64,000 bases of DNA from an uncultured Actinomycetota bacterium. Lineage in GTDB: Bacteria > Actinomycetota > Actinomycetes > Propionibacteriales > Nocardioidaceae. Below the pieces are notes generated by a model. The model was not told where the DNA came from. It ran no database searches and was given only the letters and a program-made list of their open reading frames with translations. The position numbers and the translations under genes are program-made. Below are positions 35,696 to 42,150 of the stretch, one piece after another (position 1 is the stretch's first letter; each line of letters begins with the position of its first letter). Location of the stretch: the NCBI GenBank assembly GCA_963794355.1, contig CAWCDN010000010.1, positions 27,819 through 91,818 on the forward strand, in the 5' to 3' direction.

Positions 35696-36300
35696 CTCGG
35701 CAGGCGTTCAAGAAGCTCAGCGGGTAGCCACTCCTCGACCACGATCCATTCGCCGCGTTCTAGGGCGGGTCTGACGTGGCCGCGGCCGGGGCCGCGACCG
35801 GGCAGGCATACCTCATGACCCGGTCACCAGTTCGCGGGCGGGTCGCTGGCGGGGAACGACTGGGCGCCCCATTGATCGACGAGTTCCCAGGTCGAATCCC
35901 AGGCCGGAGGCTCGGTCGCGTCCGCGTCCACCGGCGTCGCGATGGCGGCATCCGGCTTAGGGTCGGGTGTCACGGGCATCAGCATGATGGGACTCCCTTC
36001 AGGTGCCGGGTGCCGTCCCGTGGTGGAGGACGGTCGGCGACTTGTCTCGTGGGGTCCGCTGGCCGCCCGGTCGCCTCGAGTGCCTTCTATGTTGCTCGCG
36101 GGTTCCGCGCTCGGCAATGCCGAAGCCTTGCAGACACGGCCCTGCCAACCGGACGCCACGCGGCGCCACTCGAGGAGGAGGCCCGGCAGGCGGCCGTGGC
36201 GGTCTGTCACCCAGCAGTGCTTGACGACGGGGGGCGCGAGCCGTTCGGGCCCTGGGGTGCCGTGGATGCGCTCGTGGAGGGAGACGCGGTCACCCTTGCG
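35692..36300 (-). pseudogene. Small hypothetical gene split by a 357-bp insertion, with a stop at its 5' side
   Basis: Same-frame halves ...KHCWVTDRHGRLPGLLLEWRRVASGWQGRV (to 36133) and VRPALERGEWIVVEEWLPAELLERLPS* (35775-35692). Confidence 0.65.
35824..35985 (-). CDS. 53-aa acidic protein with SFPASDPP motif
   Basis: MLMPVTPDP...WELVDQWGAQSFPASDPPANW; GAAGGGAG RBS upstream. Confidence 0.7.
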   Translation of the reverse strand: MLMPVTPDPKPDAAIATPVDADATEPPAWDSTWELVDQWGAQSFPASDPPANW

Positions 36301-36339
36301 CTAATCGGCCGATCCGCGCGCGGACAGCGGCATGTCAGG
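36299..36339 (+). repeat. Inter-module site, copy A
   Basis: CGCTAATCGGC-N11-CGGACAGCGGCATGTCAGG. Confidence 0.75.
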
Positions 36340-36435
36340 GCAATAGTCTCGCGCTTTCGAAAGCGACGGAACGCCGCTCGAGGCGTAGCCTCAAGTAGTC
36401 GGCTGATGGGAGTCGGTTGGCTACTAGGGGGGCTG

Positions 36436-37692
36436 ATGGGGCGGCGACGGGGTGTTCCGCTCGCTTTCATGACGGCCATGGTGACCGCGGTCGGGGGTGC
36501 GATGGTGCTGCCCGCTGCGATGGTTCCGGCGACCGCGTCGTCACTCCCGCTTTGCCAGGGCAAGGTGGCCACGATCATCGGGACCGCCCGTGCTGACATC
36601 GTGTGGGGTACCCGTGGGCGAGACGTCATCCTCGCTCGCGCCGGCAACGACGTGGTCCACGGGCGCGGCGGCAACGACCTCATTTGCGGTGGCCCTGGCC
36701 GCGACACCGTTATCGGCGGAGACGGTGCCGACCAGATCTACGGCGGCCCAAACGACGACCGCCTTGCCGGCGGGAACCAGGACGACCGCCTACGGGGAGG
36801 CCACGGTGAGGACGACCTCTCCGGCGGCCTCGGGGACGACCACCTGAACGGCGGAACGGGCCAGAGGACGTGGTTCCGTGCGGACGCTGGCAACGACGTC
36901 TGGACCGCCGAGAGCACCGATGCCGTCTTGGATTACGGCCGAGCGCCCCGCGGCGTCAGTGTCGACCTGCTGACGGGTAGCGCGACCGGATGGGGGCACG
37001 ACACCCTCCGGACCACGCACTGGGACGGGTTCCCTCCTATCGGGCGGCCGATCCTGTTGGGCTCACAACACGACGACACTTTAGTGTCGGCTCTGGAGGG
37101 GATTCCACCAACATGGGTCGGAAACCTCCCTGTATGGGGGACGGTCATCAAGGGATCTGGTGGCAACGACGTCATCCGGGGCACCGCAAGCATGAAGCTC
37201 CTCGGGAACGAGGGTGACGATCGGGTCACGGTGCAGATCAGCACCGTTGAGGGGTTTACCAACCGATCTCTAGTCGATGGCGGCGACGGCACCGACGGAT
37301 TGTCCATGGTGGACGTCGGTGGCGTAAATATCTTCGTCACCTACCAACACTTGAGTTTCGACCTCTCCGCGGGTCAGATCCACGGAGGCGGCCAGACCGA
37401 TGTGCCAGCACCCTTGTTCGAAAACGCAATGATCGACACGGTGCGCTTCGACCCAGACCCGCAGGAGGCAAGTTACGAGCTCGACGGCACCGACGGACCC
37501 AACACCCTGACCGTGGACAGCGCTCATCCGTCTGTCATCAACGGCGGTGGGGGCGACGACGTGCTTACCGGTGGCTCGGCGGACGACACGATTGACGGTG
37601 GAGCCGGTGACGACACGGCCGACGGTCGGGAAGGCACCGATACGTGCACGTCGGTCGAGCAACCCAGCAACTGCGAAACGGCGATCCCGTAG
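36436..37692 (+). CDS. Secreted calcium-binding protein with RTX/hemolysin-type repeats
   Basis: Signal-like N-terminus, CQGKVATIIGT, many GGxGxD nonapeptides (GGPGRD, GGDGAD, GGLGDD, GGGGDD, GGAGDD), terminal DTC..VE. Confidence 0.88.
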   Translation: MGRRRGVPLAFMTAMVTAVGGAMVLPAAMVPATASSLPLCQGKVATIIGTARADIVWGTRGRDVILARAGNDVVHGRGGNDLICGGPGRDTVIGGDGADQIYGGPNDDRLAGGNQDDRLRGGHGEDDLSGGLGDDHLNGGTGQRTWFRADAGNDVWTAESTDAVLDYGRAPRGVSVDLLTGSATGWGHDTLRTTHWDGFPPIGRPILLGSQHDDTLVSALEGIPPTWVGNLPVWGTVIKGSGGNDVIRGTASMKLLGNEGDDRVTVQISTVEGFTNRSLVDGGDGTDGLSMVDVGGVNIFVTYQHLSFDLSAGQIHGGGQTDVPAPLFENAMIDTVRFDPDPQEASYELDGTDGPNTLTVDSAHPSVINGGGGDDVLTGGSADDTIDGGAGDDTADGREGTDTCTSVEQPSNCETAIP

Positions 37693-37717
37693 CGACCTCT
37701 CGACCTCCCGCAGGCAG

Positions 37718-37758
37718 GCTCGTCGGCAATGTGAGGACGGCCTGAGCCCGCAGGCATG
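37718..37758 (+). repeat. Inter-module site, copy B1, fused to an IS30 right-end remnant
   Basis: GCTCGTCGGCAATGTGAG then GACGGCCTGAGCCCGCAGGCATG, identical to 39229-39251. Confidence 0.8.
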
Positions 37759-37785
37759 CCCGGCAACTTGGTGGGCACCCACGAC

Positions 37786-37827
37786 CTCACATCGGCATAT
37801 GAGTACGACCGGACAGCGGCATGAGCG
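37786..37827 (+). repeat. Inter-module site, copy B2 (complete)
   Basis: CTCACATCGGCATATGAG-TACGAC-CGGACAGCGGCATGAGCG. Confidence 0.8.
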
Positions 37828-40166: not shown

Positions 40167-40203
40167 ATCGCCGAGAGTGACCGCGCGGACAGCGGATGCG
40201 GGC
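40161..40203 (+). repeat. Inter-module site, copy E (left arm degenerate)
   Basis: GGCTAGATCGCC-N13-CGGACAGCGGATGCGGGC; same 13-nt spacing as copies B2 and F; overlaps the lipoprotein stop. Confidence 0.65.
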
Positions 40204-40223
40204 TCTTCTTGGACCGGTCTGAC

Positions 40224-40811
40224 CTACTTTGAGGGGCGGATCCTTGGCGTGTAGACGTTCGGGAGGCGGTCGCTCCAGCTGTCTGACAACGCGTTATCGG
40301 CGAATAATCGCGAGCCTGTGGACGAACTCACGCTGATACCGGCTCGGATCCATCGGGGCCTCTGCAGACATGCCCGGTTGAACGAAAGCCAGAGAACTCG
40401 ACCGTTGCGCCCCGCTCTGTACGAGCTGCACATTCGCTGAGCGTGCGTGTTCTTGTCGCCGAGGATGAAATCAGTGCCCTTGTGGCTCTCAAAGAGGGTG
40501 CCTTCATACATGTCCGCGTTGGTCTTGAGTGAGAGAGAGATGTCGCGCCACCTCAGGCCCTTCATCGAACTGGACCGTAGGGTCACGCCGATGCGAATCC
40601 GAGTAGTGCCATGCGCGACGCGGAGTCGAATCACATCGTTCTGACGGTTTCGCACGGCATGGTGGTATGGACCGGAGAAAGAGGGCATTCCCTCTACGTC
40701 GTGTGCGGCGTCGACATGCCTGTACGTGGCACCCATTGCCGGCGTTGCAAGGCCGAAGACCACTGCTGTGAAGGCCGCCAGAACCGCCCCGGTTGCGAGC
40801 ATCTGTTTCAC
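40224..40811 (-). CDS. Hypothetical secreted basic protein
   Basis: Signal peptide MKQMLATGAVLAAFTAVVFGLATPAMG; two Cys; visibly lower GC than backbone. Confidence 0.72.
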   Translation of the reverse strand: MKQMLATGAVLAAFTAVVFGLATPAMGATYRHVDAAHDVEGMPSFSGPYHHAVRNRQNDVIRLRVAHGTTRIRIGVTLRSSSMKGLRWRDISLSLKTNADMYEGTLFESHKGTDFILGDKNTHAQRMCSSYRAGRNGRVLWLSFNRACLQRPRWIRAGISVSSSTGSRLFADNALSDSWSDRLPNVYTPRIRPSK

Positions 40812-40876
40812 GAGGCCGGACAGTACAGGTTCGGTCGCGAACCTTCTTGTGGAAGGCGCAAACTCGCCGACTACGG

Positions 40877-40914
40877 CGCCCGCTCATCGGCATGTGCGCG
40901 AGCGCGGACAGCGG
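40877..40914 (+). repeat. Inter-module site, copy F
   Basis: CGCCCGCTCATCGGCATGTGCG-CGAGCG-CGGACAGCGG; first 14 bp identical to 38011-38024. Confidence 0.82.
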
Positions 40915-42136
40915 CGGTGAGTCGTCAATGGGTCAGCGCAACACTTCCTTGATTCAAGGAGGTTGTGATGGCACGTGGTTATCGGTGGTTGTCTCTGCGG
41001 ACGAGGACGAGATCTGGACGCGGCTACGGGAGGGGCATGCGGCTAAGCCGACGGCTCGAGCATTGGGACTCTCGACGGGGACGGTGCGTGCCTATCTGGT
41101 GCGCTGCGGTGCGATCCGTCCAGCGGCTCGACGGCGGTCGCCGGTGCCCGGTTGAGCTTGATCGAACGGGAGGAGATCTCCGGTGGGCTGGCGGCCGGCG
41201 CCTCGTTACGTGTGATCGCGGCCGGGCTGGGTCGTGCTCCGTCGACGATCAGTCGTGAGGTCGCCACTCATGGCGGGCGGGATCGGTATCGTGCCGCGCC
41301 AGCTGATCAGCAGGCGTGGGCACGGGCGCGGCGTCGGCAGGCATGCAAGCTGGCCACTCGTCCGGTGTTGCGTGCGATGGTGGCCGAGAAGCTCCAAGAC
41401 GAGCAGTGGTCACCTCAGCAGATCGCTGGCTGGCTGAAGACCACCTACCCCGAACGACCCGGAGATGCAGGTGTCGCACGAGACCATCTACCGCACCCTG
41501 TTCATCCAGTCCCGCGGCGCGTTACGCCGGGAGTTGACCGCTCATCTGCGCACCGGGCGGGTGATCCGACGTCCGGCGGGGACCCGGCTACCGGATGGGC
41601 GTGGTGGCCGGCCGGGGATCCTCAACATCTCCGAACGACCAGCTGAGGCCGTCGACCGAGCCGTGCCAGGTCATTGGGAAGGCGACCTGGTCTTCGGCAA
41701 ACGCATGTCTCCGGTCGCGACACTGGTCGAACGCTCGACCAGGTTCGTGATGCTGGTGGCGCTGCCAGGCGGGCACAAAGCAGACCTGGTCGCCGACGCG
41801 TTGGCCGCGAAGATCACCACCCTGCCCGCGGCGCTGACTCGGACGTTGACGTGGGACCAGGGCCACGAGATGGCCGAGCACGTCCGGTTCACCCATGCAG
41901 ACAGGTGATCGAGGTCTACTTCTGTGATCCCCGGTCGCCGTGGCAGCGCGGGAGCAATGAGAACACCAACAGGCTGCTGCGCCAGTACCTACCCCGGACG
42001 CTCGACTTCCGGACCCTGACCCAGGCCGACTTCGACGACATCGCCGACAGCTCAACGGCCGCCCTCGACAGACCCTCGGCTTCAAGACACCATCACAAGT
42101 ACTGCCGAGGGGTTGCGTTGACGACCTGACCACATC
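40913..42136 (+). mobile_element. IS30-family insertion sequence, copy 2; transposase has several frameshifts and the termini are altered
   Basis: Left end TCAATGGGTCAGCGCAACACTTCCTTGATT shared with copy 1; fragments SLIEREEIS, VSHETIYR, GHWEGDL, SPWQRGSNENTN in different frames; right end GTTGCGTTGACGACCTGA. Confidence 0.88.
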
Positions 42137-42150
42137 GGCATGTGAGGACG
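42131..42150 (+). repeat. Inter-module site, copy G (right junction of IS copy 2)
   Basis: CACATCGGCATGTGAGGACG; matches B2 and the right flank of IS copy 1. Confidence 0.78.

Follow-up and report, generated by a model that had tools for sequence, protein, structure and literature searches.

The segment at 36.3-42.15 kb of the window (the whole 64-kb stretch of soil-actinobacterial DNA analysed here) raises the question of whether its single genes, parted by copies of a common site, form a chromosomal array of mobile gene cassettes, and of what would move them. The original prediction was of an integron-like array, exchanged by a system acting in trans or built by IS30; the site and the array held up, whereas the IS30 origin and the search for a recombinase did not. 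The system, for which no recombinase was identified, looks integron-like, and its site appears to be new: no description of either the site or the array system was found in the literature.

The site is approximately 50 bp long and consists of two tandem units of ~24 bp in direct orientation, usually 24 bp apart. Its consensus comprises unit 1, CCGCTCAT-CGGC-ATGnGCG (with variants, CCGCTCAT-CGGC-ATG(T/A)G(C/A)G), a short spacer, and unit 2, CGGACAG-CGGC-ATGTGAGTGCGTT (with variants, CGGACAG-CGGC-ATGTGAG(T/G)(G/A)CGTT). The core CGGCATG is near-invariant in both units, being unchanged in 59-61 of 61 units, and left and right half-site types assort freely. Imperfectly inverted arms of 7-8 bp flank the asymmetric, near-invariant centre of each unit, (T/G)CGGCATG, and, judged from its sequence, each unit resembles a simple core site for a recombinase. 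As predicted, the site has no attC boxes: R''/R' boxes were present in 0 of 70 sites.

A profile built from copies outside the window finds sites only at 36297-42150 and none in the 56 kb beyond the island; the window shows no REP-like scatter that ignores gene boundaries. The island has a low GC3 (0.72-0.80, versus at least 0.9 for most genes outside) and adjoins tRNA-Val(cac). Its features, in order, are:

34654..36297, no strand: low-GC3 segment between site A and the DUF4012 protein gene (end at 34653), which is the last core gene
36298..36343, + strand: site A, degenerate unit 1 (GCGCTAATCGGCCGATCCGCGCG) and unit 2 (CGGACAGCGGCATGTCAGGGCAA); nhmmer match at 36297, score 23
36438..37692, + strand: cassette gene 1, RTX calcium-binding-repeat protein (Pfam HemolysinCabind, 4e-25)
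37717..37764, + strand: site B, degenerate two-unit copy (GCTCGTCGGCAATGTGAGGACG and CCTGAGCCCGCAGGCATGCCCGG); repeat family D16
37785..37832, + strand: site C, palindromic variant of unit 1 (CCTCACAT-CGGC-ATATGAG) and unit 2 (CGGACAGCGGCATGAGCGCC); nhmmer score 36
37859..38002, + strand: cassette gene 2, hypothetical 47-aa single-pass membrane ORF, by sequence reading
38010..38024, + strand: site D, left half (CCGCCCGCTCATCGG), severed by IS1
38025..39245, + strand: IS1, IS30-family, in the core of site D (Pfam HTH_38 and rve)
39246..39261, + strand: site D, right half (GGCATGTGAGTGCGTT), at the IS1 junction
39309..40166, + strand: cassette gene 3, lipoprotein (signal peptide and lipobox LSAC by sequence reading; mechanical ORF from 39255)
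40161..40205, + strand: site E, degenerate unit 1 and unit 2 with a 1-nt core deletion (CGGACAGCGG-ATGCGGGC)
40224..40811, - strand: cassette gene 4, secreted protein of 195 aa, encoded against the site strand
40879..40915, + strand: site F, complete unit 1 (CCCGCTCATCGGCATGTGCGCGAG) and left half of unit 2 (CGCGGACAGCGGC), severed by IS2
40916..42136, + strand: IS2, IS30-family, decayed (at least 4 frameshifts; ~77% identity with IS1)
42137..42152, + strand: last site, right half (GGCATGTGAGGACGAT), counterpart of the last site of strain L001 (CCTCACATCGGCAGGTGAGGACGAT)
42416..42490, - strand: tRNA-Val(cac), 3' end toward the downstream end of the array

The same tRNA/array geometry is seen in MAG L029. 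Recognisable sites of the array begin with site A; the segment before it contains neither a recognisable site nor a recognisable protein family, and is probably part of the same island. The start of cassette gene 1 is uncertain: the mechanical ORF, from 35776, crosses site A. A 418-aa gene is called in L001. Cassette genes 2 and 4 have no Pfam match, and the stop codon of the lipoprotein gene is overlapped by site E. IS1 carries a GG target duplication and ~27-bp inverted repeats, its ends being set by comparison with the L003 and L069 copies, and a frameshift near codon 322 of its transposase gene (38075-39238) precedes the catalytic E. Site F exists in uninterrupted form in L001 (6806-6853) and in contigs of soil run X1.

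All of the motif copies on which the prediction was based exist, with some corrections. The copies at 37718 and 40161 are degenerate, and that at 38011/39246, correctly described as split by an IS, is a single-unit site (site D). The '42131' copy consists partly of the last bases of IS2, the remainder being the right half of a unit; on its left side, IS2 joins the 40877 site within unit 2. CGGACAGCGG is indeed exact at 36321, 37810, 40186 and 40905, and a fifth, unrelated match lies within an ORF at 58341 (5 matches in the window versus 0.87 expected; at least 5 in 0 of 100 shuffles). The ATCG(G/C)C-to-CGGACAG spacings of 13, 13, 13 and 11 nt were reproduced, as was the 24-bp recurrence of CGGCAT, found at 37793/37817 and 40888/40912. 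Against the expectation of one gene per interval, only ~20 bp (37765-37784) separate sites B and C, and this interval is therefore devoid of an ORF.

Arrays of this kind are present in dozens of other soil Actinomycetota genomes, which favours a reading as integron-like gene shuffling. In a genome scan with an 18-mer of unit 2, ~80 of 131 among the matches listed continue over the complete ~50-nt consensus, whose edges are sharp. As anticipated, profile matches cluster as co-oriented single-gene arrays: 43 GTDB loci possess three or more sites, with 204 of 205 sites on the majority strand and a median spacing of 654 bp, while the independent set of JGI soil metagenomes gives 161 of 166 (365 of 371 combined sharing the orientation of their neighbours). 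A genome may contain several arrays, on different contigs of one MAG, and no site was matched in 72,556 plasmids. With most data derived from MAGs and gene calls made by our own GC3-based ORF picker, intervals hold about one ORF each, 136 on the site strand and 106 on the opposite strand, and site midpoints fall inside ORF interiors in 31 of 155 cases, versus 65% expected (p=5e-31). The cargo is diverse (methyltransferases, GNAT, APH, AAA_33, RTX, LuxR regulators, ECF sigma factors and small membrane proteins), the small membrane proteins being the commonest cassette family in other arrays.

The cargo genes of the window also have homologues in other arrays, flanked by sites and with different neighbours, as had been proposed. 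In L069, L076 and L082 the array includes a homologue of the RTX gene, and the array-bearing locus L097 also has one (30-37% identity); the lipoprotein gene is 62% identical to L092 829-1707, flanked by sites at 752 and 1709, and cassette gene 4 shares 34% identity with L017 4212-4799, there too on the opposite strand between two sites. Strain L001, which is 99.7% identical, possesses two extra cassettes (83-aa and 122-aa ORFs) at the position of IS2 in the window; this sole strain difference at the locus involves an IS. One of its cassettes, Y, is 98.5% identical to L085 2137-2536 of another array. Furthermore, two RTX cassette copies on one contig (L069, L076) are 99.7% identical and diverge directly after CGGCATG. 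Such near-identity between arrays suggests that the cassettes move as units. Across breakpoints, identity is ~1.0 over the core and drops to 0.25-0.4 within ~10 nt, at a resolution limited to about 5-7 nt by site conservation. The pairs L012/L051 and L039/L102 have the right half in common and differ in their left halves. Interior homology ends within 15 nt of the core in both copies in 22 of 83 cases, with only 2% of the DNA lying that near a core. No excised circles or precise-deletion alleles were seen in the low-depth contigs of the available runs.

We consider it probable that the cassettes are mobile and that an enzyme whose gene lies elsewhere in the genome swaps them through conservative site-specific recombination at the core. 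In this reading a cassette starts at the right half of one unit 2, contains a single gene in either orientation, and ends with unit 1 and the left half of the unit 2 that follows. It would be excised and inserted by crossover within CGGCA(TG), chiefly in unit 2 and at times in unit 1, the latter accounting for single-unit hybrid sites. The insertion of one-site circles, as putative intermediates, would explain the uniform site direction. Two core-targeting IS30-family elements have landed in the array of the window. An arrangement of arm, spacer and arm, together with an overlap region that is invariant and asymmetric, points to a tyrosine recombinase as the most likely enzyme.

Within the 64-kb window, Pfam (covering five island gene products and 42 other predicted genes) and integrase motif and tblastn screens found no site-specific recombinase; Pfam yields just housekeeping genes and the IS30 transposase, in line with the prediction. 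The frequent Pfam families among 140 large array-locus proteins contain no recombinase either. Only ~7 of roughly 55 loci have a tyrosine-recombinase gene or pseudogene nearby, in no constant arrangement, and several of these are tRNA-island integrases of the ordinary kind. The proposed search for a co-occurring recombinase was thus negative, and the mechanism is one that we infer.

This negative result would suit a REP-like dispersed repeat serving as portable homology, with RecA-dependent shuffling between 50-bp repeats after inter-strain DNA transfer and no dedicated recombinase, an account that we regard as unlikely but not negligible. It is consistent with the multiple arrays per genome and with the single-unit sites that also occur isolated, outside arrays. 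Moreover, the core lies within the best-conserved stretch, which is also the longest common to any two sites (18-24 bp), so that crossovers by homologous recombination would be expected at the same place. REP-like repeats are, in addition, classic targets of IS110 and other site-specific ISs. Random repeat insertion, however, leaves the co-orientation unexplained, independent as it is of gene strand, and provides no mechanism for adding a site to each new gene. The hybrid units of L012/L051 share just ~12 nt, which is short for RecA, and the 56 kb without a site also argue against this account.

Hairpin-flanked single-strand transposable units (IS200/IS605-, PATE- or RAYT-like), mobilised by an HUH/Y1 transposase in trans, are quite improbable. 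Unit 1 would then be the right-end and unit 2 the left-end hairpin, with co-orientation arising from replication direction. Indeed, unit 1 is frequently a good palindrome (CCGCTCAT-CGGC-ATGAGCGG or CCTCACAT-CGGC-ATGTGAGG), the two similar units stand in direct orientation like LE/RE hairpins, and the sites show a weak GC-skew bias (26 to 14). The pairing of unit 1 is, however, badly preserved, the commonest state at stem position 4 being a T-T mismatch and the right half being loose. Fold energies resemble those of shuffles (z -0.1 and -0.5), with no significant fold; breakpoints lie in the unit core rather than between units, and a motif screen of ~1 Mb of array loci found no HUH/Y1 gene.

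Assembly by IS30, through composite-transposon or IS-dimer reactions bringing genes to IS30 hot spots and leaving the sites as targets or footprints, is very improbable. The IS30 family is known for hot-spot targeting, both window copies lie within sites, and a site elsewhere (L052_3245) has a GG duplication resembling an excision footprint. All ten IS30 copies examined, however, lie within the core with a GG/CC duplication, and IS30 thus targets the site and did not build the array: it is a site-specific parasite of the core. IS30 occurs in just 4 of 51 array loci, each time as a simple insertion in the core, contrary to the prediction; of 77 full sites, 76 have seamless cassette junctions that carry neither IS ends nor a GG duplication. 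These core-targeted insertions, seamless junctions and rarity largely refute IS30 as the builder. Both window copies are defective, the site consensus reaches far past any IS30 end similarity, and IS110 elements independently insert at CGGCAT^ of the same core. We know of no earlier description of an IS that targets CGG^CATG, the core of these sites. Finally, an operator, terminator or RNA stabiliser of an accessory-gene regulon, with incidental arrays, is hardly credible: intergenic placement near ORF ends and a unit 1 palindrome able to serve as a bidirectional hairpin would fit, but the polarity of the sites does not follow gene strand (136 to 106), neither an Rfam match nor a fold signal was found, sites adjoin ORF-less intervals, and core homology breakpoints are a signature of DNA exchange.

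Among known systems, serine-resolvase res sites likewise have two adjacent dimer-sized subsites at fixed spacing acting as direct repeats, and the asymmetric centre (GG) could be a 2-bp crossover; resolvases, however, delete between two res on one molecule and build no arrays, and no array-linked resolvase gene is found here. REP/BIME elements with RAYT are likewise short repeats that occur between genes in many copies, are palindromic in part and attract site-specific ISs. REPs, however, are species-specific and scattered genome-wide between core genes, frequently in inverted pairs, whereas the present sites are concentrated in co-oriented accessory-gene arrays, are common to several genera and mark homology breakpoints, with no RAYT seen. 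IS1 and IS2 resemble target-specific IS30/IS110 elements in their HTH_38 and rve transposase, ~27-bp inverted repeats, 2-bp duplication and insertion at one defined sequence in either orientation. The pdif (XerC/XerD) modules of Acinetobacter plasmids are discrete gene modules between short core sites (arms and a ~6-bp spacer), likewise without a dedicated recombinase nearby, the enzyme being presumed encoded elsewhere. Sites of pdif alternate in orientation and lie on plasmids, whereas the present sites are direct, chromosomal, tandem double units; their sequence presumably bears no resemblance to dif.

Integrons, to our knowledge unreported in Actinomycetota, differ in several respects: here there is no attC-type box or hairpin signal, the two simple sites are direct rather than inverted repeats, sequence is conserved across genera where attC conserves structure, and several arrays occur per genome without IntI or attI. 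Cassette ORFs on either strand (56:44) imply no common Pc promoter logic. Integron arrays, above all CALINs (attC clusters without an integrase) and sedentary chromosomal integrons, nevertheless share the co-oriented conserved sites between genes that are mostly single, highly diverse and in many cases without annotation, the recurrence of a cassette in different arrays with its limits inside the site, and a cargo rich in GNAT, APH and methyltransferase genes. Their site, too, is composed of two 'simple sites', with a crossover (here putative) mainly in the second, and is parasitised by site-specific ISs, as in the case of IS1111-attC.

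The window corresponds to a segment of a high-GC actinobacterial chromosome, with housekeeping genes (aspS, hisS, relA, apt, secDF, yajC, ruvCAB, yebC, pdxS and thrS) in conserved synteny. Most genes outside the island under study have a GC3 of at least 0.9, as against 0.72-0.80 within it. A near-identical copy of the locus (99.7%) was found in the soil metagenome assembly ERZ25039606 (contig_4844); it represents a sister strain and is termed L001, the other L-numbers denoting the remaining loci compared. The relevant features of the window are as follows:

7.8 kb, between the DUF4012 gene (end at 34653) and tRNA-Val(cac): island of low GC3
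38025-39245: IS1, an IS30-family copy
40879-40915: site F, cut off by IS2
40916-42136: IS2, an IS30-family copy
42416-42490, minus strand: tRNA-Val(cac), the downstream border of the island

The original prediction described single-gene modules separated by a conserved two-arm site, and all site copies that it listed are present in the window. The recurrence of CGGACAGCGG also stands, with five occurrences against 0.87 expected, four of them in the island and the fifth (58341) a chance match inside an ORF; the spacings of 13, 13, 13 and 11 nt between the arm motifs and the 24-bp period of CGGCAT are likewise correct. When a profile built from the copies of other genomes only was run over the window, it matched solely between 36297 and 42150.

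When one genome per GTDB species was scanned with the query CGGACAGCGGCATGTNAG, at least 131 matches in at least 114 loci were obtained, and approximately 80 of the 131 matches listed reach the full consensus of ~50 nt, outside which conservation ends sharply on both sides. The 77 full sites align as two tandem units, most often spaced 24 nt apart. Unit 1 reads nCCGCTCAT-CGGC-ATG(T/A)G(C/A)Gn, conserved on the left side and loose on the right, while unit 2 reads (C/A)(C/G)CGGACAG-CGGC-ATGTGAG(T/G)(G/A)CGTT and is conserved in both halves; the core, CGGCATG, is invariant in 59-61 of 61 units. The hosts among the matches listed include many uncultured Actinomycetota MAGs from several projects, and several contigs of one MAG can each bear an array. 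Single or few copies were found in cultured Nocardioides taihuensis, Actinoplanes and other genera.

In the 43 GTDB loci with at least three sites among the matches listed, the majority strand carries 204 of 205 sites, at a median spacing of 654 bp (interquartile range 457-1039). JGI contigs from soil and rhizosphere, scanned independently, included 58 that bear two or more sites; here 161 of 166 sites are co-oriented, and overall the co-orientation within arrays amounts to 98%. The few sites of opposite polarity (in L121, L160, L170 and L029) mark junctions of two arrays with opposing directions; in L029, a short array faces the tRNA and a longer array then runs the other way. Each interval holds approximately one ORF, on the strand of the site in 136 cases and on the opposite strand in 106. 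Site midpoints fall inside ORFs in 31 of 155 cases, against 65% expected (p=5e-31), so that ORF interiors are avoided, and site polarity relates only weakly to GC skew (26 to 14). The cargo is diverse and consists mostly of singletons, including methyltransferases, GNAT, APH, AAA_33 kinases, RTX proteins, LuxR regulators, ECF sigma factors and small membrane proteins. Most frequent among the cassette products are the small membrane proteins of one single-pass family with the core motif ...MVAxxExxxLxxxVxLGxWWxxRTxLFRAHxR...; this family gave no Pfam match and was found in L007, L012, L017, L031, L038, L044, L085, L091 and L102.

Cassettes are shared between arrays. In L001, intact site F is followed by an 83-aa ORF (cassette X), a half-site, a 122-aa ORF (cassette Y) and a last single-unit site; cassette Y is 98.5% identical to a segment of L085 that also lies between two sites, and its neighbours differ. 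An RTX cassette is present in two copies on one contig (L069 and L076; 99.7%), which diverge right after CGGCATG, and further cassettes are common to L076/L100, L039/L102, L051/L085, L029/L054, L012/L051 and L085/L102. The cargo of the window also has relatives elsewhere: the lipoprotein has a site-flanked homologue in L092 (62% identity), the secreted protein has one in L017 (34%, likewise on the opposite strand), and homologues of the RTX protein (30-37%) occur in L069, L076, L082 and L097, of which those in L069 and L082 have recognised sites on their flanks.

The boundaries of the shared segments fall at the core. At the 3' boundaries, identity remains at ~1.0 across unit 1, the left half of unit 2 and the core, and then drops to 0.25-0.4 within ~10 nt, while at the 5' boundaries identity climbs at the core; in L012/L051 and L039/L102, different left halves precede the same right half and cassette. 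Overall, 83 homology ends were interior, and for 22 of them both copies have a core no more than 15 nt away, although such proximity applies to only 2% of the DNA. Furthermore, variants of the left half are combined with those of the right half in many ways, and there are also single-unit hybrids. From the core-centred breakpoints and the assorting half-site variants, it follows that the cassette is [right half of unit 2 - gene - unit 1 - left half of unit 2], and that the point of exchange falls inside CGGCA(TG). The window carries IS2 where L001 has the ORFs beyond site F: either cassettes X and Y were lost first and IS2 then entered the resulting hybrid unit, or IS2 inserted first and the cassettes were deleted afterwards.

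IS30-family elements encode a transposase with HTH_38 and rve DDE domains, have terminal inverted repeats and duplicate 2-3 bp of target. IS1 and IS2, whose ends were fixed by comparison with relatives in other loci, conform to this family in Pfam domains, inverted repeats and a GG duplication, and share ~77% identity. IS1 interrupts a single unit (CCGCTCATCGG^(GG)CATGTGAGTGCGTT, where ^ marks the junction), and IS2 has its left junction within unit 2 of site F (CGGACAGCGGC^), its right end adjoining GGCATGTGAGGACG; site F is uninterrupted in L001 and in soil-run contigs. All ten IS30 copies examined (IS1, IS2, those of L003, L069, Nocardioides sp. zg-1228 and Nocardioides sp. HB32, and L205-L208) are inserted at CGG^CATG with a GG/CC duplication, in either orientation and in unit 1, unit 2 or isolated single units. 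Both window copies are defective: IS2 has at least four frameshifts, and IS1 has one near codon 322 (window 39030-39045), upstream of the catalytic E. The SPWQRGSNENTNG segment of IS1, which contains the catalytic E, lies in another frame; the defect is identical in L001, and the proteins encoded by relatives have 384 aa. Since all copies examined are inserted at the core and both window copies are defective, IS30 is a parasite of the site and not its maker, contrary to the suggestion of the original prediction that IS30 may have built the array. IS110-family (DEDD) elements are inserted at CGGCAT^ (L064 4513-6133 and L044 4643-6275), and two unrelated IS families therefore have one target. 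One site (L052, ~3245) has the sequence CATCGGGGCATG, whose core contains an additional GG that looks like a duplication left after IS30 loss. BLAST of IS1 against plasmids returned distant IS30 relatives only, and comparison of the locus with Logan contigs of four soil and plant runs, at low depth, gave joints only between the IS1/IS2 paralogues.

The tRNA-Val position itself appears to attract different content. In a related species, the orthologous tRNA-Val/aminotransferase locus (L206 14987-17380, 80-93% identical to window 42393-43737) has other island content, including weak sites with the opposite polarity and, in the core of a unit 2, an IS30; the difference in content identifies the position as a recurrent hotspot. 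Between the window and L029, only the tRNA and 27 nt are conserved there. No direct repeat of the tRNA-Val 3' end was found, and the reading of the island as an element integrated at the tRNA, with att repeats, was rejected. At the opposite end, a 1.6-kb low-GC3 stretch (34654-36297) from the last core gene to the first site gave no site, Pfam match or integrase remnant, and may consist of decayed cassettes or another island remnant. Two further tRNA observations concern the window: a degenerate tandem copy of tRNA-Val(gac) (43741-43818; first 19 nt identical, remainder 86% identical) directly follows the intact gene (43660-43734), is present in L001 too and is called by neither ARAGORN nor Rfam, while the 95-nt tRNA-Thr(ggt) of ARAGORN (59384-59478), which overlaps a HipA-like kinase ORF (59193-59954), is probably a false call, since Rfam does not report it at gathering score.

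As anticipated from the sequence, no recombinase was found among the predicted window genes scanned. Nor was a recombinase found among the frequent Pfam families of 140 large array proteins, and no linked one emerged from Pfam analysis of selected array-edge genes, from motif screens for tyrosine, serine and HUH enzymes, from tblastn with three integrases or from the 21-kb annotated contexts of eight IS30 relatives. The yield was limited to pseudogenes and integrases of tRNA islands, all of them scattered; ~7 loci have a tyrosine-recombinase gene or pseudogene nearby, in no fixed geometry. In L118 (15790-16819), L087 (938-1231) and L023 (947-1132), a few kb from arrays on three unrelated contigs, there are tyrosine-recombinase genes that belong to one family (C-terminus ...YSHLWPTAEDKTR) and are frameshifted or fragmentary.

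The cassettes would be moved by conservative site-specific recombination at the core, with an enzyme acting in trans that could be a housekeeping or a still unrecognised one. The arm-centre-arm layout, the invariant asymmetric centre, the co-orientation and the core-centred breakpoints are consistent with such a process, and we favour a tyrosine recombinase as the putative enzyme. The main rival is homologous exchange between site repeats, because the best-conserved stretch surrounds the core. Returning to recombination in trans, we give an even chance to the reading that soil Actinomycetota have a cassette system of their own, with shared single-gene cassettes, a tandem site of 24-bp units, insertion and excision at CGGCATG and a recombinase whose gene lies apart from the arrays. 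Such a system would do the work of an integron without being homologous to one, would comprise numerous arrays per chromosome and would lack an expression platform. Integrons, the textbook example of a device that captures and shuffles single genes, have to our knowledge not been reported in Actinomycetota, which are the main antibiotic producers of soil and carriers of antibiotic resistance. If true, a separate system with APH, GNAT and methyltransferases among its cargo would alter models of soil gene flow and of the origin of soil resistance genes, and would supply the engineering of high-GC genomes with a new site of recombination and, in time, an enzyme. Since the site sequence is conserved, it offers a simple PCR or probe handle to harvest the cassette pool from soil, and the question as to which enzyme moves the cassettes becomes directly testable.

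A literature search returned nothing relevant on the site motif or on actinobacterial cassette or integron-like systems. Integrons have an IntI tyrosine recombinase with attI and Pc beside the array, which by definition are absent from CALINs (attC clusters without integrase). The present arrays resemble both in their co-oriented sites, mostly single ORFs and recurrence of the same cassette in different arrays. However, integron cassette ORFs are mostly co-oriented, unlike the mixed strands seen here, and neither the scanned window genes nor the frequent array-locus families include a recombinase. The attC site is an imperfect palindrome with R'' RYYYAAC and R' GTTRRRY end boxes, the single strand of which folds into a stable end-pairing hairpin. 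In line with the original prediction, none of 70 full sites has both boxes (one has RYYYAAC and four GTTRRRY); the two units are direct repeats, and the sites fold no better than shuffled sequences (mean z of the fold energy -0.13 for the top strand and -0.46 for the bottom strand). Both attC membership and a whole-site hairpin were therefore rejected. A transcript-level element was rejected on the same fold energies and the ORF strands, and apart from tRNAs nothing in the window or in five array loci matched Rfam at gathering score.

Modules of the pdif type are plasmid-borne and flanked by 28-bp XerC-6-XerD sites that resemble dif and alternate in inverted orientation. The 7-8-bp arms and 4-6-bp centre of the present site are compatible with this geometry; its sequence is presumably unlike actinobacterial dif. 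In contrast to pdif, the sites are direct. A viral contig scan and plasmid BLAST of the consensus site gave no matches, so that in these collections the site does not represent an att site of phages or plasmids. REP/BIME repeats are intergenic, genome-wide, in both orientations and beside any gene content, with a RAYT (Y1/HUH) gene in the genome, whereas here the 56 kb of window outside the island has no site and arrays are 98% co-oriented. As to the RAYT gene, a motif screen of ~1 Mb of loci found no HUH/Y1 gene in the array loci. The closest known systems are integron/CALIN arrays and pdif modules, and in each case membership fails on features that define the system.
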